NCBI GenBank assembly: GCA_963666285.1
Contig: OY762711.1
Origin: Sedimentisphaerales bacterium
GTDB taxonomy: Bacteria; Planctomycetota; Phycisphaerae; Sedimentisphaerales; SM23-30
Strand: one strand, 5' to 3'
DNA length: 64,000 nt
The position numbers were made by a program, and so were the translations under genes. Shown one piece after another: positions 12,443 through 30,302 of the stretch. Below the pieces are notes generated by a model. It was not told the DNA's origin and searched no databases. It saw nothing but the letters and a program-made list of their open reading frames with translations. Position 1 is the first letter of the stretch, and every line of letters starts with the position of its first letter.

Positions 12443-12925
12443 GTGATGAACTAAGAGTTGAGGAGTTCGTTTTCGGCTCATAATTTGTTTTACAGCTGGT
12501 GAAGAGTTAAAGTTGTGGTGTTGCTATGCGAAAGAGGATTAACTGGTAATGGGATGTATGCGGCGCTGGACGGAGGGGAGTTGCGGGTGAATGGAATGGG
12601 GGTGGAAGTTTCGCGGCGGAAGGAAGAGCTCTGTCGGGCAGTTTCGGAGTGAGGTGGCGAACGGGGGGAGCGTGAAAGCTAACGGGATATATGCCGAGGG
12701 CTGCGGAGAGGCGCGGCGGTGAGAAGGGCTCTTCTGGTATTTCGGTGGGTGTGTAGAGATTGTGTGGTGATAATGCGATGGTTAAACGGCGGGTGTGCGG
12801 CGGGCTACGGAGCTATAGCGGCGGTAATTTACCATTAGTCAATCCGCCGGATTTCAACCGCTGGACAGACCAGATGCCGCGGAGCGGCATCAAAGTGTAA
12901 AGGGTAAAATAAAAAGTGTAAAGGA

Positions 12926-13038
12926 GGTGTCCTGATGTACGTTGACATCAGGAATAATTCGCTGTCGCTCACAACTTATTTTAAAGCTGTCGCATATTTA
13001 AATTCAGAATTATGAAAAAGATTGTCAACCACGAAAAT
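12926..13038 (+). repeat. Dispersed repeat family A, left part (interrupted by the IS, continues at 14611-14690)
   Basis: Near-identical to the intact copy at 22122-22312. Contains the palindrome CCTGATGT-ACGTTG-ACATCAGG (12931-12952). Confidence 0.85.
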
Positions 13039-13157
13039 ACAATGAAAGCCAGAATATTCCTGTAGCATGGCTTGTGTTATAATACACAATAATTTTAGCA
13101 CGAGCTGTCACAGGGACGCTCAAATATTTAACCAATTTTATACGGAGTATTCTGGCT

Positions 13158-14204
13158 ATGAAGACTATTATGTCAATTGATTTAGGAAAATTCAAGAGTG
13201 TAGTTTGTTTTTATGAGGTAAAAAGCTGTAAGGCTACATATAAGTCGTTTAAGACTAACCCTCAAGAGCTTCATGACCTGGCAGTATCTCACCCTGCTGA
13301 TCTTATTGTATTTGAGGCTTGTGATATCATAGGCTGGATTTGTGACCTTTTTGACACCCTGGAATTAAAATATGAAGTGGCAAATACTAATACCGGCGAA
13401 TGGTCTGGCAGAAAATTGAAGAAGAAAACAGATAAAAAGGATGCATTTTGGCTGGCCAAGCGTGCTGCTTTAGGAGATTTATCAACTGTCTATGTTCCTA
13501 AAAAGGAAATTCGAGAGAAACGATCTTTGATAAATTATCGTCAGAGCCTAACAGAGCGTATAACTCAGGTAAAAAATACTATTCGTTCTTTATTAAATGC
13601 CCAGGCGTATTCGTTGCCGTCAGGCAGAAAGTGCTGGTCTAAGCAGAATCTGGAACAGTTAAGAAGTATGGCTATGCCAATGGATAAAGTTAAACCAGAT
13701 GAGCTCTGGAAAGGCAATCTATGGAGCGAGCTTATATTACTGGAACAATTAACAGACGCTTTGCAAGTAGTTGAAGATAAACTGGAAGAGTTAAATAGTA
13801 CTGATGAAAAGGTAAAACTATTACAGACTGTTCCCGGAGTTGGCCCACGTCTGGCAGAGGCAGTTGCAGCTTATATTGATGATCCACATAGATTTAAGAA
13901 TTGCAAACAAGTTGGCAGCTATATTGGTATGACACCGCGTCAGTACCAATCAGGTAATACAGACCGTCATGGGCGGATAAGTAAATATGGCAATAGGTTA
14001 TTGCGAGCATTACTTGTTGAGGTTTGCTGGCTGGGTTTGCGTTGGAATCCATGGATAAAAGAAACATACGAAAGAATAAAGAGGGGAAGTAAAACTCGTG
14101 CAAAAATAGCGATAGTAGCTACAGCCCGACGGTTGTTCGTACGATTGTGGGCGATGATGCGAGATGGGACAAGTTGGCAGATGCCTGAATTGCAAGGTGC
14201 TTGA
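13158..14204 (+). CDS. IS110 family transposase/recombinase
   Basis: DEDD RuvC-like motifs (IDLGK, FEAC, KTDKKDA), VPGVGP, and YQSG with the conserved Ser. Confidence 0.97.
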   Translation: MKTIMSIDLGKFKSVVCFYEVKSCKATYKSFKTNPQELHDLAVSHPADLIVFEACDIIGWICDLFDTLELKYEVANTNTGEWSGRKLKKKTDKKDAFWLAKRAALGDLSTVYVPKKEIREKRSLINYRQSLTERITQVKNTIRSLLNAQAYSLPSGRKCWSKQNLEQLRSMAMPMDKVKPDELWKGNLWSELILLEQLTDALQVVEDKLEELNSTDEKVKLLQTVPGVGPRLAEAVAAYIDDPHRFKNCKQVGSYIGMTPRQYQSGNTDRHGRISKYGNRLLRALLVEVCWLGLRWNPWIKETYERIKRGSKTRAKIAIVATARRLFVRLWAMMRDGTSWQMPELQGA

Positions 14205-14251
14205 TAAAAATATAAGTAGAAAAATATAAATATTACCTATGATTTTTCCCG

Positions 14252-14540
14252 ATTGAAATCGATACGGAACCTTGGTCGTGCATTTGGGTTTTGAACCTGA
14301 CACGAAAATTAAGCCGTATCGCAATATATATAATGGAACCATGGCGTAAAATACAGCCTCGGACACTCCGGATAGAAAGATGAAACAATCAGGTAAATAA
14401 TGATTCGCTACGCGAAAATTGTTTTAAATAGGTTTATCGCATAAGGTCAAAAAGCAAAAAACGAGGCGGTGTAAAACCGCCCCGGCTTCTCGACAACTTG
14501 CAACGCTCGGGTTGCTCCTCAGCAGAGCCCTATCCTTTGC
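14252..14540 (+). ncRNA. Putative bridge/seek RNA of IS copy 1 (ends approximate)
   Basis: Stem CGATACGG/CCGTATCG encloses TCGTGCATTT and CACGAAAATT, matching the bottom and top strands of the insertion target. Further hairpins lie downstream. Confidence 0.7.
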
Positions 14541-14720
14541 AAGATAAAGGAATTATAGCAAAAATGAATAAAATTAGAAAATTAATGTTGCATTCTGGCT
14601 TCATAGAAATTCACGAAAGAACACGAAAATAATACTGTTGCTCGCAGAGGCCGCAGAGCTTGCAAAGAATATTATTTGGCCATGAAGGGAATGTTTTAAA
14701 TTAAGAATTCAAAATTAAGA

Positions 14721-16649
14721 GAGCGCCAAGGTAAGCTGGTGCAGTCAAGCCGGCCAATCCGGCATGGGTAAGGGTTAGCCACCGGCCCATTACAGAACCG
14801 GGCGTGCAGTGAGGTAACAAGCTGTGCGAAGCCCCGGGAAAGGAGTTTGTCAGCTACAACGTAAGTGAAGGTATTGAGCCCCGAAATTAGAAATTAACGC
14901 ATCCGGGCCAGGTGATTCTTAACACTGAAGCTAATACTGGTATATGCGAGATAAGGCGAGTATATATCGGCGAGCCGGGGTCTGAGTCCGTAGCGGGTAA
15001 ACGAACTGACTGCATTGGAACTTGGGAGAGCCAATATGTTCCAAAAGGAAGCTGTCGAGGAAGCTGAAGAAGTTACGAGACGGTATGGCATATTGGCAGT
15101 CGGATCGGCCCATAGTAGAGGAGTAAGCAGGGTAATGCCTGCTGAGGGCAATAGAACCCACTCGAAGGAGCCGACGGTTTAATGTAAAGAGACAGAATTA
15201 GAAATGCAATACACTGAAATTGGCAAAACATTGACAAAGTTGTCTCTTATAGCCGGTCATGCCCGAAGAGACCGAAGCTTCAGGTTTACGAGCCTTGCTC
15301 ATTTACTTGATGTTGAATATCTCCGGTATTGCTACAATAGCCTGAACAGGAATAAGGCAGTAGGAATAGACGATGTAAGCTGGCAGGAATATGGAGTTGA
15401 CTTAGAAGCCAATCTGGAACGACTGGTAACAAAGCTCAAACGTAATAAGTTTAAGCCCAAACCAGCCAGACGGGTCTATATACCCAAAAATGACAGGGAA
15501 ACCCGTCCTTTGGGTATATCAGCTCTGGAAAACAAGATAGTAGAGCGTGGTATCACGTGGATACTGGAAAGTATATATGAACAGGATTTTTCAGACTGTT
15601 CGTATGGCTTTCGACCTAAAAGAAGCTGTCATCGGGCATTGAAAAGTCTCAACGACCTGATAATGTTTCAACCAGTAAACCATATAGTCGAAGCGGATAT
15701 AAAGGGCTTCTTTGATAATGTTGAGCATGATAAACTTATGGAATTTATACGCATAAGAATATCAGATACGGCATTATTAAACATAATAGAGAAGTTCCTT
15801 GAAGCCGGATATGTTGATGAGGGTTTACTGGTAAGGTCAGACAAAGGTACGCCGCAAGGCAGTATTCTTAGCCCGATGTTAGCCAATATATTCCTGCATT
15901 ATGTATTAGATGAATGGTTTGAGACGACAGTTAAGAGCCATGTCAAAGGATACTGTGAATTGGTGAGGTATGCAGACGACTTTGTTTGTGTGGTTCGTTA
16001 CGAAGAAGATGCCCGAAAGATCGAAAAGACGTTGAAGAACCGGTTCAATAAATATGGGCTGGAAATTCATCCGACTAAGAGCCGAAATATGACTTTTGGC
16101 CGGTATGAGAGAGAAAACGCTATAAAACAAGGCCGTAAGGCCAATACGTTCGATTTTTTGGGTTTTACGCATTATTGTGACAAATCCCGCAGAGGAAATT
16201 TTAAGCTGGGTCGTAAGACCAGCAGCAAGAAGTTTAAGACCAAATGCCGGGAAATGAATGATTGGCTGAAAGATATAAGAAACCAGTTCAAGACAAAGGA
16301 ATGGTGGAAGGTTCTGGAAGCCAAACTGCGAGGCCATTATCAATACTATGGTGTCAGTGAGAACTCTATAGGAATAATAAAGTTTTACAAACTAACACTT
16401 AGGATGGTAAAGAAATGGCTGAACAGGCGTAGTCAGAAGCGTAAGATGAACTGGGCTAAGTTTACAGAGTACCTGAATCATTATCCGTTGCCGAAACCGC
16501 GGATAGTACATAGTTTTTACGGATGTCACATGTAAGGTGAGTTAAACCGAAGAGCCGGATGTGGGAAAGCCACAAGTCCGGTTCTGTGAGGGGTATTGAA
16601 GTTCCTCACATATAACTATATGATAGGAACCATATTATGCCTACTCGAC
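14721..16649 (+). mobile_element. Group II intron (RT-encoding, no endonuclease domain)
   Basis: 5' GAGCG. EBS1 TCTTAA (14917-14922) is complementary to the upstream exon TTAAGA. Domain V GAGCCGGATGTGGGAAAGCCACAAGTCCGGTTC (16552-16584). 3' end CCTACTCGAC with A at -7. The flanks rejoin to a sequence like the intron-free copy at ~20730-20760. Confidence 0.9.
15204..16535 (+). CDS. ltrA: Group II intron reverse transcriptase/maturase
   Basis: RRVYIPK...RPLGI, SYGFRP, DIKGFFD, GTPQGSILSP.LANI, YADD, FDFLGF and X-domain LRGHYQYY. No HNH tail. Confidence 0.96.
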   Translation: MQYTEIGKTLTKLSLIAGHARRDRSFRFTSLAHLLDVEYLRYCYNSLNRNKAVGIDDVSWQEYGVDLEANLERLVTKLKRNKFKPKPARRVYIPKNDRETRPLGISALENKIVERGITWILESIYEQDFSDCSYGFRPKRSCHRALKSLNDLIMFQPVNHIVEADIKGFFDNVEHDKLMEFIRIRISDTALLNIIEKFLEAGYVDEGLLVRSDKGTPQGSILSPMLANIFLHYVLDEWFETTVKSHVKGYCELVRYADDFVCVVRYEEDARKIEKTLKNRFNKYGLEIHPTKSRNMTFGRYERENAIKQGRKANTFDFLGFTHYCDKSRRGNFKLGRKTSSKKFKTKCREMNDWLKDIRNQFKTKEWWKVLEAKLRGHYQYYGVSENSIGIIKFYKLTLRMVKKWLNRRSQKRKMNWAKFTEYLNHYPLPKPRIVHSFYGCHM

Positions 16650-16769
16650 ATTAAGAAAATAACTGACATTAAAAACCGTGGCTACGGATAAGTACCAATA
16701 ATTATAAGATGGCTTGCTTCAGCCTTCGCTAAAGCTATGGTTCGACAAGAGCGTACGTGATTAATAATT

Positions 16770-16895
16770 TTGAACTACTGATGCACGCGGATGGACACCG
16801 ATAAGAAAATGTTTAGATAACTTGACGATAAATTTTACAACCACGAAAATTCACGAAAGAACACGAAAAAAAATACTGTTGCTCGCGGAGGACGC
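16770..16895 (+). repeat. Repeat module containing an unoccupied IS target
   Basis: 16770-16850 matches 18991-19071 and continues CCACGAAAAT|TCACGAAAGAACACGAAA...GTTGCTCGCGGAGG, as on the right flank of both IS copies. Confidence 0.85.
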
Positions 16896-18990: not shown

Positions 18991-19190
18991 TTGAACCACT
19001 GATGCACGCGAATGGACACCGATAAGAAAAAGTTTAGATAACTTGACGGTAAATTTTACAACCACGAAAATACAATGAAAGCCAGAATATTCCTGTAGCA
19101 TGGCTTGTGTTATAATACACAATAATTTTAGCACGAGCTGTCACAGGGACGCTCAAATATTTAACCAATTTTATACGGAGTATTCTGGCT

Positions 19191-20237
19191 ATGAAGACTA
19201 TTATGTCAATTGATTTAGGAAAATTCAAGAGTGTAGTTTGTTTTTATGAGGTAAAAAGCTGTAAGGCTACATATAAGTCGTTTAAGACTAACCCTCAAGA
19301 GCTTCATGACCTGGCAGTATCTCACCCTGCTGATCTTATTGTATTTGAGGCTTGTGATATCATAGGCTGGATTTGTGACCTTTTTGACACCCTGGAATTA
19401 AAATATGAAGTGGCAAATACTAATACCGGCGAATGGTCTGGCAGAAAATTGAAGAAGAAAACAGATAAAAAGGATGCATTTTGGCTGGCCAAGCGTGCTG
19501 CTTTAGGAGATTTATCAACTGTCTATGTTCCTAAAAAGGAAATTCGCGAGAAACGATCTTTAATTAATTATCGCCAGAGCCTTACAGAACGGATAACTCA
19601 GGTAAAAAATACTATTCGTTCTTTATTAAATGCCCAGGCGTATTCGTTGCCGTCAGGCAGAAAGTGCTGGTCTAAGCAGAATCTGGAACAGTTAAGAAGT
19701 ATGGCTATGCCAATGGATAAAGTTAAACCAGATGAGCTCTGGAAAGGCAATCTATGGAGCGAGCTTATATTACTGGAACAATTAACAGACGCTTTGCAAG
19801 TAGTTGAAGATAAACTGGAAGAGTTAAATAGTACTGATGAAAAGGTAAAACTATTACAGACTGTTCCCGGAGTTGGCCCACGTCTGGCAGAGGCAGTTGC
19901 AGCTTATATTGATGATCCACATAGATTTAAGAATTGCAAACAAGTTGGCAGCTATATTGGTATGACACCGCGTCAGTACCAATCAGGTAATACAGACCGT
20001 CATGGGCGGATAAGTAAATATGGCAATAGGTTATTGCGAGCATTACTTGTTGAGGTTTGCTGGCTGGGTTTGCGTTGGAATCCATGGATAAAAGAAACAT
20101 ACGAAAGAATAAAGAGGGGAAGTAAAACTCGTGCAAAAATAGCGATAGTAGCTACAGCCCGACGGTTGTTCGTACGATTGTGGGCGATGATGCGAGATGG
20201 GACAAGTTGGCAGATGCCTGAATTGCAAAGTGTTTGA
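19191..20237 (+). CDS. IS110 family transposase/recombinase
   Basis: Protein identical to 13158..14204 except the last two residues (SV vs GA). Confidence 0.97.
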   Translation: MKTIMSIDLGKFKSVVCFYEVKSCKATYKSFKTNPQELHDLAVSHPADLIVFEACDIIGWICDLFDTLELKYEVANTNTGEWSGRKLKKKTDKKDAFWLAKRAALGDLSTVYVPKKEIREKRSLINYRQSLTERITQVKNTIRSLLNAQAYSLPSGRKCWSKQNLEQLRSMAMPMDKVKPDELWKGNLWSELILLEQLTDALQVVEDKLEELNSTDEKVKLLQTVPGVGPRLAEAVAAYIDDPHRFKNCKQVGSYIGMTPRQYQSGNTDRHGRISKYGNRLLRALLVEVCWLGLRWNPWIKETYERIKRGSKTRAKIAIVATARRLFVRLWAMMRDGTSWQMPELQSV

Positions 20238-20281
20238 TACCAATATAAGTAAAATATAAATATTACCTATGATTTTGCCCG

Positions 20282-20570
20282 ATTGAAATCGATACGGAAC
20301 CTTGGTCGTGCATTTGGGTTTTGAACCTGACACGAAAATTAAGCCGTATCGCAATATATATAATGGAACCATGGCGTAAAATACAGCCTCGGACACTCCG
20401 GATAGAAAGATGAAACAATCAGGTAAATAATGATTCGCTACGCGAAAATTGTTTTAAATAGGTTTATCGCATAAGGTCAAAAAGCAAAAAACGAGGCGGT
20501 GTAAAACCGCCCCGGCTTCTTGACAACTTGCAACGCTCGGGTTGCTCCTCAGCAGAGCCCTATCCTTTGC
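20282..20570 (+). ncRNA. Putative bridge/seek RNA of IS copy 2 (ends approximate)
   Basis: Same stem-loop as copy 1, with guides at 20306-20315 and 20331-20340. Confidence 0.7.
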
Positions 20571-21110
20571 AAGATAAAGGAATTATAGCAAAAATGAATA
20601 AAATTAGAAAATTAATGTTGCATTCTGGCTTCATAGAAATTCACGAAAGAACACGAAAAAAAATACTGTTGCTCGCAGAGGCCGCAGAGGTCGCAACGAA
20701 TATTATTTGGCCATGAAGGGGATGCATTAAATTAAGAATTCAGAAAATAACTGACATTAAAAAATTGTGGCTGCGGGTAAGTATCAATAATATATAAGGT
20801 GATTCGTTTCGTTCATGATAAAAGAACCGGGTTTTTGTCTTGATAGAAATGGTATAATGCATTATTATTTTTTGCGGAATATAAGAGTCGGTTTATGGAT
20901 ATACAAATAATTTTACAATTGAGGGTTATGTGAATTTGATAAAGAAATATTTTTGTGTTATTCTATTTTTGGCAATTGTATTGTTATTTGCAGGTAAATT
21001 ATGTTCTTATAAACATGCTGGAGGTATTACAAGATCAAAAGCAATTTCCAGAGGTCTCCTATGTTTTGTCTGATCGTGCGGAAGTTAACTGATTTATTGA
21101 GGAAATAATT

Positions 21111-22040: not shown

Positions 22041-22510
22041 AGAAGAGTGAGAAGTGAGAAGTGAGAAGTGAGAGGTGAGCTTCGCTAAATGAAAAATGAA
22101 TAGTGAAAAATGAAAAATTAAGGTGTCCTGATGTACGTTGACATCAGGAATAATTCGCTGTCGCTCACAGCTTGTTTTAAAGCTTTCGCATATTTAAATT
22201 TAGAATTATGAAAAAGATTGTCAACCACGAAATTCACGAAAGAACACGAAAAAAAATACTGTTGCTCGCAGAGGACGCAAAGATCGCAAAGAATATTTTT
22301 TGACCATGAAGGGAGTGAAGTTAATGAAGGATGGTAAGAGTGAGAAGTGAGAGGGAAGAGGTAAGCTTCGCTAAATTAAAAATGAATAATTAAAAGTGAA
22401 AAATTAAGGTGTCCTGATGTACGTTGACATCAGGAATAATTCGCTGGCGTGACCTATTTTGAATCGCCTGTGACGAGCAGGAAAGTGACTACGAAAATCA
22501 CGAAAAAGGC
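22040..22510 (+). repeat. Mosaic of heptamer tandem repeats and family A repeats
   Basis: (GTGAGAA)n and (ATGAAAA/GTGAAAA)n runs, palindrome copies at 22127-22148 and 22413-22434, and CACGAAA triplet at 22226-22251. Confidence 0.85.
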
Positions 22511-23250: not shown

Positions 23251-23522
23251 GCTATTAAATATATCAACTTTATTAATTATATAGAAGAAAATTATGCTCG
23301 AATTCTTGCAAAATTTTGCATAAAGCTAGTAGTTGATTAAGTTTGTGTTATCTGTTACCATGGTCGCAATCATAAGCAACAAGATTTATTATCTCAACTT
23401 TTTAAATTTTAATATAACATTGAATCACAATATATTATAGCAAAACAAAGTGTATAATCGGTCACTTAGAGTATTTTAAATAATGACAACCAGATTTAAG
23501 CAGCATGTTGAAAGGAAAAATT

Positions 23523-26500
23523 ATGCCTAAAGTGAATCTAAAGAGTTTGTTATTGTCGGTATTGTTAGCAGTAAGTTTTTTAAGCGGTTCTGTGTCAGCT
23601 GATATAGCGGCGGCAGATAAGCTGACGGTTAATGAAGGTTTTACCGACCCGGTTGGATTTTATACCTCAGATGTTGATTTTTCGTGGATATTACCGCAGG
23701 GTGAATCCAAGCTGCTGGGGCTGGTGCCGATGGGTGGTGCGGTATTGAGTCAGAGCGCGTACCAGGTTGCAGTGGCGAGTTCGCCGAAACTGCTGCCTGA
23801 CGAAGCAGATTTATGGGATAGCGGCAAAGTAAAATCATCGCAGAGTATTCATGTGAAGTATGCGGGCAAGAAGCTTGGTTCGCGGCAGAAGGTATACTGG
23901 ATGGTGCGATACTGGGACCAGGACGGGAGGCGGTCTAAATGGAGTAAGGCCGCTAGTATTGAGCTGGGGCTGCTGGGTAATGCAGACTGGCAGGGCAGCT
24001 GGATACGTATGAAGGGTAAGGATTTTACCGCGGCGTCTGCGAACTCAAAGATAAAGATATTGAAAGCTGTTTATGGCGTTAGGGATGATGCCGGGCGTCA
24101 GATCGACCTGGCCAAGAAGATACAGGCTCGCGTTGACGAAGGTAAATATACAGTGCCGGCGTCAAATGAATTTGCCGGAAGAGATCCGGCAGATCGAGTT
24201 GTCAAGGTTTTGCAGATGGAATACATGTTAAATGATGAAAAGGTGATCGCAGTGGTTGAAGAGAATTCGATCTTTAACCTGGTGACAAAAATTGGCGGTC
24301 TGATACCTTCGTTTACTTATACGCCCGAGTATTTACGCAAAGATTTTTCGGTAGAATCTCCGGTTGCATCGGCTCGTTTGTATGTAACGGCTAAAGGGTT
24401 GTATGAAGTGTATCTGAACGGTGAGAAGATCGGCAAAGATTATATGGTGCCGGGCTGGACGCCATATGAAAAGCGAATTGAGACGGTGACCTATGATGTA
24501 ACAAAGCAGGTGAAGAAACAGGATAATGCGATAGCGGCGATACTGGCAGAAGGCTGGTATGCGGGTGATTTGATGGGCAAGCAGGAGAAGTATCCGGAGC
24601 TGCAGCCTCAGTTGCTGGCACAGCTGGAGATAACATTTAAGGATGGTACCGTTAAGAAAATCGTAACGGACGGCAGCTGGAAGGCGACGAATGAAGGCGC
24701 GATACGCTATTCGAGTATCTATCATGGCGAAACCTATGATGCGGCAAAAGAGATGGCGGGCTGGAACGAGGCCGGGTTTGATGACAGCGGCTGGAAATCG
24801 GTAACGGTTTGTTCGATCGGCTCTAAGGATAATCTTGTGCCGAAACGCCATAATACAGTTCAAATGGAGACAGAGCTGAAGACCCAGGCAGTAACCGAGC
24901 CTGGCGAAGGTAAGTATGTCTTTGATCTGGGCCAGAATATGGTAGGCTGGCCGAAGCTGAAGATCCCGGTAAAGGCCGGGGAGACGATAACGGTTCGTTA
25001 TGCCGAGATGCTGGAGACAGACGGTAATATGTATACCGCCAATTATCGCGGTGCGAAATCGACAGATTATTATACTGCAGCAGAAGATGGTGTTGTCTGC
25101 TGGCATCCGACATTTACATTTCATGGCTTCAGGTATGTAGAGCTGAGCGGTTTTTCTGAAGGAGTTAAGCCGAAGAAAAACTGGGTGACAGGCTGCGTGT
25201 TGCACTCTGCGTTTGGTCAGGTCGGCAAGTTTGAATCGTCACATGCCAAGCTGAACCAGCTGCAGAAGAATATAACGTGGGGTCAGCGTGGTAATTACCT
25301 GGAAGTTCCGACGGATTGTCCTCAGCGGGATGAACGGCTGGGCTGGACAGGTGATGCGCAGGTTTTCTGTCCGACATCACTGTTTAACTATGATGTGCAT
25401 TCATTCTGGGCGAGCTGGCTGGAGAGTATACGAGAGGACCAGAGGGAAGACGGCTATGTTCCAAATGTTGTACCGTCGGTAAGCTGCGGGTATGGCTCGC
25501 CGGGCTGGGGAGATGTTTCGGTTGTGTCGCCGTGGGATGTTTATGTGCGGACGGGCGATCTGGATATCCTGAGGGATAACTACGAGATGATGAAAGGCTG
25601 GACCGGCGCTTACGAACGTGAAGCAAAAGATTATATCGTTGCAAGGAACGGTTACGGTGACTGGCTGCAGCCGTTTCCATCAAGTGGTAATTTTACCGAT
25701 ACTCAGATGGATATCATAGCGACAGCGTATTTTGGCAGGTGTACTATGATAATGGCGAACTCAGCGAAATTGCTGGGTAAAGAAGCAGAAGCCGGTAAAT
25801 ACAGCAAGCAGTTTGCCAATATACGCAAGGCATTTTCGAGCAAGTATTTTGACGATAAGGGCTATTTGACAATTGCGATCCCGACTCAGACATCATATCT
25901 GCTGGCGTTGGGTTACGATTTGCTGGAGCCGGAATTGCGAGAAGGTGCGGTTCGGGGTCTGCTGGAGCTGATAGAGAAGTCAGACGGTAATTTGCGAACC
26001 GGCTTTTTGGGTACTCCGCTGATAAACCAGGTTTTGGACGATTATGGTTATTCGGATATAGCGTACCAGGTATTGTTTAAGGAGACATATCCATCGTGGT
26101 TCTTTTCCATTAACGAGGGAGCGACGACTATGTGGGAGCGATGGAACAGCTACAGTCGTAAAGACGGCTTTGGTGATGCCGGGATGAACTCTTTTAACCA
26201 TTATGCCTATGGCGCGATCAATCAGTTTATGGTAGAGCGTATTGCCGGCCTGGCACCGGATTGGAAGAAGTCCGGCTATAAGCATTTCTATATTCAGCCG
26301 ACACCGGGCGAGCCGCTAACATGGGCGAGGGCGGAATACCAGAGCCCATACGGCAAAGCCGCAAGCGGCTGGAAGCAGACGAAGAAAGGTCTTGAGATAG
26401 AAGTGGTTGTGCCGACAAATACCACCGCGACGCTGATAGTGCCGGAGATGGCAGAGGGCAAGCCTGTTTTGACAGAATCCGGTAAGAAATGCAGCTTGAG

Positions 26501-26567
26501 CCGGGAAGGCGGCAAGTATGTATATCAGCTGGTGCCGGGTGAATATAAATTTTTGCTGGCGAAGTAA
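23523..26567 (+). CDS. Alpha-L-rhamnosidase, GH78 (paralog 1)
   Basis: DLGQNMVG, FTFHGFRYVE, PTDCPQRDERLGWTGD, GATTMWERW and MNSFNHYAYG motifs, with signal peptide. Confidence 0.95.
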   Translation: MPKVNLKSLLLSVLLAVSFLSGSVSADIAAADKLTVNEGFTDPVGFYTSDVDFSWILPQGESKLLGLVPMGGAVLSQSAYQVAVASSPKLLPDEADLWDSGKVKSSQSIHVKYAGKKLGSRQKVYWMVRYWDQDGRRSKWSKAASIELGLLGNADWQGSWIRMKGKDFTAASANSKIKILKAVYGVRDDAGRQIDLAKKIQARVDEGKYTVPASNEFAGRDPADRVVKVLQMEYMLNDEKVIAVVEENSIFNLVTKIGGLIPSFTYTPEYLRKDFSVESPVASARLYVTAKGLYEVYLNGEKIGKDYMVPGWTPYEKRIETVTYDVTKQVKKQDNAIAAILAEGWYAGDLMGKQEKYPELQPQLLAQLEITFKDGTVKKIVTDGSWKATNEGAIRYSSIYHGETYDAAKEMAGWNEAGFDDSGWKSVTVCSIGSKDNLVPKRHNTVQMETELKTQAVTEPGEGKYVFDLGQNMVGWPKLKIPVKAGETITVRYAEMLETDGNMYTANYRGAKSTDYYTAAEDGVVCWHPTFTFHGFRYVELSGFSEGVKPKKNWVTGCVLHSAFGQVGKFESSHAKLNQLQKNITWGQRGNYLEVPTDCPQRDERLGWTGDAQVFCPTSLFNYDVHSFWASWLESIREDQREDGYVPNVVPSVSCGYGSPGWGDVSVVSPWDVYVRTGDLDILRDNYEMMKGWTGAYEREAKDYIVARNGYGDWLQPFPSSGNFTDTQMDIIATAYFGRCTMIMANSAKLLGKEAEAGKYSKQFANIRKAFSSKYFDDKGYLTIAIPTQTSYLLALGYDLLEPELREGAVRGLLELIEKSDGNLRTGFLGTPLINQVLDDYGYSDIAYQVLFKETYPSWFFSINEGATTMWERWNSYSRKDGFGDAGMNSFNHYAYGAINQFMVERIAGLAPDWKKSGYKHFYIQPTPGEPLTWARAEYQSPYGKAASGWKQTKKGLEIEVVVPTNTTATLIVPEMAEGKPVLTESGKKCSLSREGGKYVYQLVPGEYKFLLAK

Positions 26568-26591
26568 ATAGTCGATAAGTTTTAGTATTAG

Positions 26592-26634
26592 AAGCAAGTC
26601 TGGCAACCAGGGAGGGTGTCAGGCTTGTTTTTTT
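26592..26634 (+). terminator. Intrinsic terminator
   Basis: AAGCAAGTCTGGCA...TGTCAGGCTTGTTTTTTT. Confidence 0.7.
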
Positions 26635-26880
26635 GTACCTTTCGTTTTTAGCTTGTAGTGTTCGGGTAAGAGGTAAAAGGTAAGAGGAGGTTGTTTGTCT
26701 CTATGTGTGTCGGGAATAATAATTTTATTATTATTTTCAGGGAAGGGGTGATTGAATTCTTGCAAATTTTTTCATAAAGCTATTAGTTGATTATATTTGT
26801 GTTATGTGTTACCATATTTGAACCATTAGCAACAAGAGAATTCTTTATCTCTAAACTTTGTTCTTTGTTTATTATGTTTA

Positions 26881-27118
26881 GTGCGGTTTATGCTCCGCAT
26901 CATATAGATTTTGCACTTTTGACTTTTTAACGTTATCCGCAAAGGTCAGAACAGGGCAATTAAGTGAAAAATGAATAATGAAAAGTGAAAAACTAAGGTG
27001 TCCCGATGTACGTTGACATCAGGAATAATTCGCTATCGTCTCACGCTTTGTTTAAATTCAAGATTCACCTAAAAGACCCTTTAAGGCGATTTATGCAACT
27101 TAAAAACTGCGAAAGTAA
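26881..27118. repeat. MITE-like repeat family B, copy 2 (with nested heptamer and palindrome module)
   Basis: Same ends as copy 1. Palindrome at 27002-27023. Confidence 0.75.
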
Positions 27119-27290
27119 ACTGTTTATATTGTAATATTTATGAACGTTATTAATAAGAACGATACATGGAAAACAACGTTTTGAATGATAGTAGTTCAAT
27201 ATATTAGAGCGATACAAAGTTAATAATGTCACTTTGAGTACTTAATAGAATGGCTATGAGGTCCAGGCTGCATATTGAAAGGAAAAAGTT

Positions 27291-30200
27291 ATGCCTAAAA
27301 TGAATCTTAAGAATCTATTATTGTTGGTTTTGTTAGCAGTCAGTTATTTATGCGGGTCAGTATCAGCTGATGTAGCGGCCGCGGATAAGCTGACGGTGAA
27401 TGAAGGGTTTGTAGATCCGATAGGGTTTTACGCGTCAGATGTGGATTTCTCCTGGATACTGCCGCAGGGCGGCTCGGTAGAGAGTCAGAGTGCGTACCAG
27501 GTTGCCGCGGCGAGTTCACCGAAACTGCTGCCAGATAAAGCTGATCTATGGAACAGTGGTAAAGTAAATTCATCGCAGAGTATCCATGTGAAGTACGAAG
27601 GCAAGAAGCTTAGCTCCAGGCAGAAGGTGTACTGGATGGTGCGATACTGGGACCAGTCCGGCAGGCGGTCTAAGTGGAGTAAGGCCGGTACTATTGAGTT
27701 TGGTCTGCTGAATAATACAGACTGGCGGGGCAGCTGGATATATATGAAGGAAAAAGATACGGGTGCGTCGAAAGATGCGTCGAAGATAAAGGTGTTGAAA
27801 GCCGTTTATGGAGCAAAGGATGATGCATCAAAGCAGATCGACCTGACCAAGAAAGTTCAGAACAGTGTTGACGGCAGGAAATATGCTGTCAGCGCATCTA
27901 ATGCTTTTGCCGGTGATGACCCGGCATATGGAGTAGAAAAGGTAATGCTGCTGGAATACATGTTAAATGATGAAAAGGTTGTCACGGAAGTTAAAGAGAA
28001 TTCATACTTTAACTTGGTGACAAAAAAAGGAGGCCAGCCGGCAGCGACAGATTATGTGCCGGAATATTTGCGAAAAGAATTTAAGGTAAAACAGCCGGTT
28101 GAATCTGCTCGCTTGTATGTAACGGCTAAGGGTCTTTATGAAGTGTATCTGAACGGCGAGAAGATCGGGAAAGATTATATGGTGCCGGGCTGGACGCCTT
28201 ATGAAAAGCGAATCGAGACGGTAACATATGATGTTACAAAGCAGGTGAAGAGACGTGATAATGCTTTAGCTGCGATACTGGGCGAGGGCTGGTATGCCGG
28301 TGACCTGATGGGTAAGCCGGTAAAATACCCAGCGGTTCATCCTCAGTTCCTGGCACAGCTGGAGATAACCTTTAAGGATGGCACGGTGCAGAGAGTGGTA
28401 ACGGACGGCAGCTGGAAGGCGACGAATGAAGGCCCGATTCGCTATTCGAGTATCTATCATGGCGAAACCTATGATGCGGCAAAAGAGATGGCGGGCTGGA
28501 ATGATACGGGTTATGATGCCGGCGGCTGGAATTCAGTGGTGACATTACCGGTTGAATCTAATGTCAGCCTGGTGCCGAAACGTCATAATACGGTACAGGT
28601 AGAGGCAGGTCTGAAGACACAGACAGTTAACGAGCCTAGCAAAGGCAAATATGTATTTGATCTGGGTCAGAATATGGTAGGCTGGCCAGAGCTGAAGCTG
28701 CCTTTGAAGGCCGGTCAGAAGCTAACAGTTCGGTATGCCGAGATGCTGGAGAAGGACGGCACTTTGTATACGGCAAATTATCGGGGTGCAAAATCGACAG
28801 ATTATTATACAGCGTCAGAAGATGGTGTTGTCAGCTGGCATCCGACATTTACTTTCCATGGTTTCAGGTATGTCGAGCTGAGCGGTTTTTCTGAAGGAGT
28901 TAAGCCAAAGAAAAACTGGGTGACAGGCTGCGTATTGCACTCTGCATTTGGCCAGACCGGTAAGTTTGAATCATCACATGCGAAGCTGAATAAGCTGCAG
29001 AGTAATATAACCTGGGGCCAGCGCGGCAATTACCTGGAGGTACCGACCGATTGTCCGCAGCGTAATGAGCGTTTGGGCTGGACGGGCGATGCGCAGGTGT
29101 TCTGTCCGACATCGCTGTTCAACTATGATGTGCATTCATTCTGGGCGAGCTGGCTGGAAAGTATGCGAGAGGACCAGAGAAAAGATGGATATATTCCTAA
29201 TGTTGTACCTTCGGTCAGCTGTGGTCATGGCTCGCCGGGCTGGGGTGATGTATCGGTTGTATCGCCCTGGGATGTTTATGTACGGACGGGCGATCTGGAT
29301 ATCCTGAGGGATAACTACGAAATGATGAAAGGCTGGACCGGCGCCTACGAGCGTGAGGCAAAAGATTATATTGTAAACAGGAATGGTTTTGGTGACTGGC
29401 TGCAGCCATATCCGGCGAATGGTAATTTTGCCGATACCCAGATGGATATCATAGCGACAGCGTATTTTGGCAGGTGCAGTTTGATAATGGCACAGGCCGC
29501 AAAGAAACTTGGCAAAGAAGAAGATGTTCGTAAATACGGCAAGCAGTTTGCCAATATTCGCAAGGCATTTTCGAGCAAGTATTTTGATGAGAAAGGAAAG
29601 CTGACGGTCAAGACACCTACCCAGACAGCTTATCTGATGGGTTTGGGTTATGATCTGCTGGAGCCAGGTCAGCGTGAAGGTGCGGTGCAGGGTCTGCTGG
29701 AGCTGATAGAGAAGGCAGACGGTCATTTGCGAACCGGTTTCCTGGGTACACCATTGATTAACCGGGTACTGGAAGAATGCGGCCATCCTGATATTGCATT
29801 CCAGGTATTGTTTAAGGAGACATATCCATCGTGGTTCTTCTCTATCAACCAGGGTGCAACGACAATGTGGGAGCGTTGGAACAGCTTCAGTCATAAGGAT
29901 GGTTTTGGTGATGCCGGTATGAACTCATTTAACCATTATGCTTATGGCGCGATCGATCAGTTTATGGTAGAACGTATTGCGGGTCTGGCACCGGATTGGA
30001 AGAATTCTGGGTATAAACATTTCTATATTCAGCCGACACCGGGCGAGCCGCTGACATGGGTGAGAGCGGAATATCAGAGTCCATACGGTAAGGCAGCAAG
30101 CGGCTGGAAGATGACTAAAAAAGGTCTAGAGATAGAAGCTGTTGTGCCGACAAATACAACCGCAACACTGGTAGTTCCAGTACTTTCAGCGGGCGAGCCT

Positions 30201-30302
30201 GTTTTGACAGAGTCTGGTAAGAAATGCAGCTTGAGCCGGGAAGGCGGCAAGTATGTATATCAGCTGAGATCGGGCAAGTATAAATTCTTGCTGGCAAAGT
30301 AG
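27291..30302 (+). CDS. Alpha-L-rhamnosidase, GH78 (paralog 2)
   Basis: Same GH78 motifs, co-linear and highly similar to paralog 1. Confidence 0.95.
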   Translation: MPKMNLKNLLLLVLLAVSYLCGSVSADVAAADKLTVNEGFVDPIGFYASDVDFSWILPQGGSVESQSAYQVAAASSPKLLPDKADLWNSGKVNSSQSIHVKYEGKKLSSRQKVYWMVRYWDQSGRRSKWSKAGTIEFGLLNNTDWRGSWIYMKEKDTGASKDASKIKVLKAVYGAKDDASKQIDLTKKVQNSVDGRKYAVSASNAFAGDDPAYGVEKVMLLEYMLNDEKVVTEVKENSYFNLVTKKGGQPAATDYVPEYLRKEFKVKQPVESARLYVTAKGLYEVYLNGEKIGKDYMVPGWTPYEKRIETVTYDVTKQVKRRDNALAAILGEGWYAGDLMGKPVKYPAVHPQFLAQLEITFKDGTVQRVVTDGSWKATNEGPIRYSSIYHGETYDAAKEMAGWNDTGYDAGGWNSVVTLPVESNVSLVPKRHNTVQVEAGLKTQTVNEPSKGKYVFDLGQNMVGWPELKLPLKAGQKLTVRYAEMLEKDGTLYTANYRGAKSTDYYTASEDGVVSWHPTFTFHGFRYVELSGFSEGVKPKKNWVTGCVLHSAFGQTGKFESSHAKLNKLQSNITWGQRGNYLEVPTDCPQRNERLGWTGDAQVFCPTSLFNYDVHSFWASWLESMREDQRKDGYIPNVVPSVSCGHGSPGWGDVSVVSPWDVYVRTGDLDILRDNYEMMKGWTGAYEREAKDYIVNRNGFGDWLQPYPANGNFADTQMDIIATAYFGRCSLIMAQAAKKLGKEEDVRKYGKQFANIRKAFSSKYFDEKGKLTVKTPTQTAYLMGLGYDLLEPGQREGAVQGLLELIEKADGHLRTGFLGTPLINRVLEECGHPDIAFQVLFKETYPSWFFSINQGATTMWERWNSFSHKDGFGDAGMNSFNHYAYGAIDQFMVERIAGLAPDWKNSGYKHFYIQPTPGEPLTWVRAEYQSPYGKAASGWKMTKKGLEIEAVVPTNTTATLVVPVLSAGEPVLTESGKKCSLSREGGKYVYQLRSGKYKFLLAK

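Follow-up and report, generated by a model that had tools for sequence, protein, structure and literature searches.

The window, that is, the whole 64,000-nucleotide stretch of contig OY762711.1 (GCA_963666285.1) that was analysed, comes from a Sedimentisphaerales bacterium and holds two of the nine genome copies of an insertion sequence. With a probability of roughly 0.92, as judged from its sequence, this is an IS1111-group (IS110-family) insertion sequence that carries its own bispecific guide RNA. The two copies, and the gene and ends of the first, are located as follows.

13035–14607, plus strand: IS1111-type insertion sequence, copy 1; 1573 bp, nine genome copies at 96–99% identity, ends set by the 7+3 rule
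13035–13041, plus strand: left extension of 7 bp (donor core 13035–13036, right-donor arm 13037–13041)
13038–13043, plus strand: −10-like hexamer TACAAT of a predicted circle-junction promoter
13042–13055, plus strand: left sub-terminal inverted repeat, matching the right repeat at 13 positions, with one base bulged
13158–14204, plus strand: DEDD recombinase/transposase of 348 amino acids (PF01548, PF02371, NF033542, catalytic residues)
14394–14587, plus strand: remainder of the right end, containing additional hairpins and lying outside the conserved RNA
14588–14593, plus strand: −35-like hexamer TTGCAT of the predicted circle-junction promoter
14592–14604, plus strand: right sub-terminal inverted repeat, followed by a 3-bp extension (14605–14607)
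19068–20637, plus strand: second element copy in the window, with a predicted RNA at about 20278–20423

The reading frame retains all of the catalytic residues D8, E53, D92, D95 and S265. A DEDD RuvC-like domain is followed by a C-terminal PF02371 domain with the catalytic serine, the combination that marks IS110/IS1111 enzymes, and the protein scores 214 bits against NF033542 (cut-off 140). Its nearest named homologues (73% and 66%) belong to the Sedimentisphaerales. A PDB search returned structures for IS621 and ISCro4 alone, whose proteins are distant and align in the C-terminal part (E 2e-15 and 4e-14).

The sub-terminal inverted repeats are near-perfect, with 13 matches and one bulged base, in keeping with the approximately 11–13 bp of the IS1111 group. 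If the element is taken to extend 7 bp beyond the left repeat and 3 bp beyond the right, its ends are identical in 9/9 copies, and it then shares only AA with its flank in every copy. There is no target duplication, as the same ends rebuild an existing empty paralogue. Measured to the inverted repeats, the non-coding stretches are about 116 bp before the gene and 400 bp after it. Insertion is into a specific target and in one orientation in 9/9 copies. The left junctions are alike in all nine, and four kinds of right junction occur (in 5, 2, 1 and 1 copies).

For comparison, 213 loci were collected, candidate ends were obtained for 165, and 150 passed filters for the length of the ends, an AG following the right repeat and the length of the flanks. 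Some decisions were made by eye: L101 was dropped, L137 was admitted, and the close relatives L111 and L170 were given an 8-bp extension. The 150 loci form 101 clusters at 90% right-end identity. Of these, 98 lie above 40% protein identity, and 71 with a unique anchor motif were aligned without using their targets. The 67 elements tested, which exclude one mis-anchored element and three with short flanks, have 51 distinct left flanks and 61 distinct right flanks. A held-out set comprised 19 elements outside both the RNA model (R1) and the first test, aligned by R1, which matched 30 of 44 loci. Viral contigs yielded just two distant pieces, and plasmids just two records, at 42%.

Once the ends are joined in code, the hexamers TTGCAT and TACAAT are spaced 17 bp apart, which forms a predicted promoter only. 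TTGAC occurs 14–18 bp ahead of the junction in 87/101 clusters. Contigs from three DNA runs of one study include a form that skips exactly 1573 bp, probably an empty paralogue. The circle joint was not seen in the contigs of those three runs, which drop rare forms and are thus uninformative on circles. A −10-like hexamer is also present in 32/101 left ends. An extended −10-like sequence, TGnTATAAT, lies within the left end at 13085–13094 and recurs in L002, L004 and L027; it is a possible internal promoter.

The predicted RNA, its tracts and the host DNA that they match are arranged as follows.

14248–14393, plus strand: predicted seek/bridge RNA, from the consensus fold and pair counts, with inferred ends
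14251–14255/14386–14390, plus strand: closing stem of the predicted RNA
14260–14321, plus strand: target-binding arm, made up of an outer stem, an internal loop and an inner hairpin (14285–14299)
14276–14284, plus strand: right target guide, complement of the core and 7 nt of right target; 8/9 match in this copy
14301–14307, plus strand: left target guide, corresponding to 5 nt of left target and the 2-nt core
14308–14309, plus strand: handshake-like bases, matching donor +1/+2 rather than the target
14327–14331, plus strand: short right donor guide, 4/5 match here
14372–14378, plus strand: left donor guide ATAGAAA, of which 14377–14378 follow the core
13030–13034, plus strand: left half of the target, 5 nt of host DNA, the same in 9/9 copies and matching the left target guide
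14608–14616, plus strand: host DNA, target core (14608–14609) and right half of the target

The position of the closing stem gives an RNA of about 145 nt, near the size of the long seekRNAs (145–170 nt). The initial annotation had assigned the RNA to 14252–14540; the conserved RNA covers 14248–14393, and the remainder of that interval, 14394–14540, falls outside it. The perfect 8-bp stem (14260–14267/14314–14321), the GGTT-TTG-AACC hairpin (14287–14297) and the tracts TCGTGCATTT (14276–14285) and CACGAAAATT (14301–14310) are all present where they had been placed. The RNA region is identical between both window copies, and 14248–14490 has zero variable columns in an alignment of all nine genome copies. 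In the RNAalifold consensus of 59 sequences none of the four guide tracts is paired, and 12/15 pairs show changes on both sides. In a 27-pair structure, drawn partly from the same alignment on which it was counted, 18/27 pairs have changed on both sides, and 87% of cells are paired versus at most 41% in slid controls. Model R1 included a mis-registered outer stem (25.7% paired); the 27-pair count used the corrected structure, with R1 left unchanged.

The folding z for 14240–14560 is only −1.9. Rfam gave no family over the RNA, with group II intron hits nearby only, and no orphan RNA copies were found, as R1 matched the nine elements only (150 of 406 first-look candidates scored). In L115, L118, L127 and L098 the inner hairpin of the target arm is lengthened by long insertions, and the model matches span 185–216 nt. 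In the predicted fold of the lone RNA of this element, the two target guides pair together with a probability above 0.9, at 8.3 kcal/mol below the open form. They are self-complementary because the target is a direct repeat, and direct-repeat targeting with self-pairing guides likewise occurs in 9/67 relatives. The protein would need to open this pairing.

The aligned relatives show that the four tracts vary with the DNA that they match while the RNA stems persist. From 5′ to 3′ the order of the tracts is right target guide, left target guide, right donor guide and left donor guide, and the target is matched on both strands with the top-strand complement first. The left guide (14301–14305) equals target −5 to −1 in 271/335 cells across the 67 elements, compared with a null of 103±9 and a maximum of 132 in 5000 permutations; z per position is 8.4–10.4. 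The right guide (14276–14282) complements target +7 to +1 in 221/469 cells (null 127±10, permutation maximum 164). When anchored on the inner stem, it occupies two registers one base apart, in 21 and 21 of 64 elements; the remainder comprise 8 that are weak in all registers, 8 that are best in a third register and 6 others. The best of the two registers gives 286/384 matches against a null of 146±8, the registers having been picked after seeing the data. In the held-out 19 elements, the left guide scores 77/95 (null 30±5) and the right guide 95/114 (null 52±5).

Because related elements are not independent samples, every RNA was in addition scored on the target of its nearest neighbour. The own target gives 547/704 matches and that of the nearest relative 357/704, with 50 wins and 11 losses among 64 elements. 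The arm had been annotated as an IS1111-type target-binding loop, and this is borne out: the guide tracts vary with the insertion site of each element, and relatives with other targets have different loops. The proposed guide–target match also exceeds chance. At the empty site at 22226 the joint match is 15/16, a score reached by 0/1000 dinucleotide shuffles of the right end, the best of which gave 14/16 (4/1000).

The run of identity between the element end and the right flank in the 101 clusters is 2 in 62, 0–1 in 20, 3 in 15 and 4–5 in 4. Since it is mostly 2, a 2-nt core is indicated, which is AG in most relatives and AA here; the cores within this branch include AG, AA, GG, AC and TG. Donor and target cores differ in 20/101 clusters, and among 17 multi-site elements the core varies at the right junction in 4 and at the left junction in 0. 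One sub-branch has a fixed core mismatch, with AG at the left junction and CG at the right (L051, L053–L055, L057, L103, L104, L107–L110, L174, L178, L186 and L204); in the three members tested, the left donor guide carries the core of the target.

Directly behind the left target guide, 14308 and 14309 match the donor in 61 and 65 of 67 relatives and the target in 14 and 15 of 67. The held-out set behaves alike, with donor matches in 18 and 19 of 19 versus target matches in 5 and 1. Support for a handshake is thin: about two independent donor changes are tracked by the guide at these bases, and two elements miss. The next base, 14310, is a stem base and is T in 66/67. Handshake bases after the left donor guide were considered and rejected: 14379 relates weakly to target +1 (33/66, null 26.5, with 111/5000 shuffles as high), and 14380 gives no signal.

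The donor arms hardly vary, so that donor-guide covariation rests on few changes. In the short right donor guide, 14327, 14329 and 14330 covary with donor +5, +3 and +2 in 46, 65 and 59 of 67 elements (null 36.6, 52.5 and 54.0). In the left donor guide, 14376 matches donor −1 in 67/67 (null 50.8), through three states. Among roughly 15 elements whose ends are unusual, the own donor is a better fit than the common one in 12 and a worse fit in 3; these donor-end results are to be read with the caveat that the end-caller gave preference to AG following the right repeat. Three donor-guide candidates had been put forward in the initial annotation, and ATAGAAA is retained as the left donor guide. 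AAATACA (14349–14355) is discarded as a right donor guide: it lies in a variable hairpin and matches the own left extension at 7/7 in 1/67, namely this element. ATTGTTTT (14418–14425) is rejected by position, as it lies beyond the closing stem, and the tract at 14327–14331 is better supported.

It could be argued that a short processed RNA of the target arm (approximately 14260–14321) does the work, with the ends read mainly by the protein at the inverted repeats and the donor loop dispensable. An 82-nt RNA is enough for ISEc11 movement according to the available text of PMC11187229, relatives show almost no variation in the inverted repeats and extensions, and the right donor guide is short and imperfect. 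A dispensable donor loop would sit poorly with its stems being the best conserved of the RNA (98% paired), and with the tracking of donor −1 by 14376 and of donor +3 by 14329. On balance, this seekRNA-only account is unlikely, and a bispecific RNA with both loops in use is the preferred reading.

The initial annotation had read a 15-bp target with 10-nt guides and a 4-nt AAAT core. The host repeat that bears on this occurs in three-A and four-A forms, both of which are found empty in the window.

22226–22239, plus strand: unoccupied three-A site of 14 bp within a paralogous host repeat
16842–16856, plus strand: unoccupied four-A site of 15 bp within a paralogous host repeat; the form taken as the target in the initial annotation

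Some observations suit the longer register: five four-A sites are empty, two of the nine copies lie in four-A sites, and the three closest relatives use the longer register of the right guide. In addition, the nearest empty paralogue of copy 2 has four A, which leaves the original site of copy 2 uncertain by one base. The AAAT core nevertheless fails at several points. In that register 3/9 right junctions lack the T, 14308–14309 follow the donor, and positions +1 and +2 are common to donor and target in just 15 and 14 of 67 relatives. The rejoined flanks of copy 1 match the three-A paralogue at 22226 at 93% over 197 nt, gap-free at the site. A similar 4-bp duplication for ISEc11 is retracted in PMC11187229, in the text available. 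The reading is very improbable, and a 2-nt AA core takes its place. Of the 10-nt guides, the tracts themselves stand and the length does not; the left guide measures 7 nt. Coincidence accounts for part of the 10/10 match of the 10-nt left tract, because 14308–14309 track the donor and 14310 belongs to a stem. A one-base deletion upon insertion is unnecessary for copy 1 given the three-A empty paralogues, and possible for copy 2.

It is scarcely credible that the tracts merely form the two strands of an RNA stem or match AT-rich DNA by chance, with the protein alone picking the repeat: TCGTG does pair with CACGA in the free fold, but the tracts share at most 4 self-complementary bases in 58/67 relatives, are left unpaired by the consensus fold and follow the flanks of each element.

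A genome scan found no perfect match to the site spelled by the guides. Five copies lie in sites matching at 13 of 14 positions, two in 12-of-14 sites and two in the longer register, at four-A sites. The same right guide thus serves 14- and 15-bp sites, in 7 and 2 copies here and in 5 and 3 in G020. The repeat holds 4 more 13-of-14 sites, all empty. Another 15 sites of the genome, outside the repeat and with at least 12/14 matches, are empty as well, a point against the guide-RNA reading. The filled fractions of three-A (5/9) and four-A (2/7) sites are based on numbers too small for a preference.

Programming against the host repeat, as proposed initially, applies to 7/9 copies; the other two are elsewhere, one of them in a CRISPR spacer. 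This copy (L013; genome C1:3248295–3250718) interrupts a spacer of a 14-repeat Cas12a array, in which 14 identical 36-nt repeats lie behind cas12a (TIGR04330, 1145 bits, L214). The rebuilt spacer is 29 nt long and the other 12 spacers are 26–28 nt. Its presence within a spacer indicates that the host-repeat context is dispensable and that a short sequence suffices as the target. The inserted element opposes the gene direction of the array, and it may cut off the far spacers.

Mechanistically, the analogy with ISEc11 and IS621 suggests that the element would form a circle, whose joined ends would make a promoter, and that the RNA would load onto the DEDD/serine recombinase. The target loop would open a 14-bp site (5 + 2 + 7) while the donor loop would hold the circle junction, and strands would be exchanged at the left edge of the core without duplication. 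A site longer by one base is also within reach of the right guide, and most of the best matches in this genome are copies of the dispersed intergenic repeat.

The order of these events may be a mirror image of IS621, a tentative proposal held at slightly under even odds. The bottom strand would be exchanged first, the cut would fall at the left edge of the core, and the handshake bases, located behind the left target guide, would pair with donor +1/+2 once exchange has occurred. The proposal draws on the reversed guide order, the handshake-like bases after the left guide and the variation of the core at the right junction only. The available text of PMC11208158 describes, for IS621, cleavage of the top strands behind the core, with handshake bases placed after the right guides. 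Single-strand exchange is reported for other IS110 elements in the accessible parts of 10.1101/2025.10.25.684509 and 10.64898/2026.08.31.748434, with which the mirror-image order fits.

This class of system has been known since 2024, and the present element is a well-supported new example of it, the mechanism itself being published. As far as the available text of PMC11187229 (Siddiquee et al. 2024) extends, ISEc11, ISPa11, ISKpn4 and ISPst6 are alike in the non-coding region behind the gene, the sub-terminal inverted repeats and the 7 + 3 bp extensions. ISEc11-type seekRNA elements further resemble it in a 348-aa enzyme with a T/SG motif, a junction promoter (predicted here), a top-strand complement that precedes the bottom-strand match, and natural reprogramming among relatives. 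A repeat as target is shared with ISPa11, which inserts in REP. They differ in host group and target, and the present element is known from its sequence alone. The donor loop with covarying guides mapped here goes beyond the seekRNA account given in that text.

The portions available of PMC11208160, PMC11208158 and 10.1101/2025.05.14.653916 describe IS621 and ISCro4 (IS622) with two loops, four guides, a 2-nt core and a 14-bp site, as here, and with handshake-like bases that follow the target loop's second guide. An additional base in the target is reported to be tolerated at IS621 off-targets and is likewise seen here. In contrast, the RNA lies behind the gene here and before it in IS621/ISCro4, the guide order is reversed, the core is AA/AG rather than CT, and the site is split 5+2+7 instead of 7+2+5. 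The predicted bridge RNAs of ISCARN28, ISAzs32 and ISPa11 (Durrant et al. 2024, PMC11208160, Fig. 6d together with Extended Data Fig. 10c, compared by their legends) are alike in an RNA in the right end with donor-binding bases in a multi-loop. A literature search of text, with figures, supplements and ISfinder outside its scope, found no IS1111 bridge RNA tied to Planctomycetes; in the same scope, it found no handshake or structure study of IS1111, only IS621/ISCro4 work and a review.

The present work adds roughly a hundred IS1111-type elements, fully mapped and reprogrammed by nature, with non-CT cores; most of them come from Planctomycetota, Acidobacteriota and metagenomes. Such cores could widen the range of sites reached by bridge recombinases. 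If true, the mirror-image order would offer design rules applicable to a branch whose cores are AG/AA/GG/AC/TG. The predicted IS1111 strand order and handshake position are directly testable, the PDB search having given structures for IS621/ISCro4 only.

Several further features of this genome were observed. A second IS1111-type family (L027–L030) has 4 copies at 34–36% protein identity, inserted in a sister repeat; its 5-nt left flank is the same as that of the main element in 3/4 copies, and R1 gave no match to it. The first spacer of the Cas12a array (C1:3248331–3248356) resembles by eye the short intergenic repeats targeted by this second family; with up to 3 mismatches allowed, the rest of the genome contains no match to it. 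The dispersed intergenic repeats at 12900–13034, 14608–14720 and 22050–22450 form a mosaic family of short imperfect tandem units, one module of which has about 80 genome hits. Many relatives of the element likewise insert into short-unit repeats. A group II intron (14720–16650) with a 443-aa reverse transcriptase (15204–16535) starts about 110 bp behind the element and shares its repeat-rich intergenic stretch, with several copies by contig depth. Further along the window, at 23505–30302, two tandem genes of about 1000 aa each are 75–84% alike at the DNA level.
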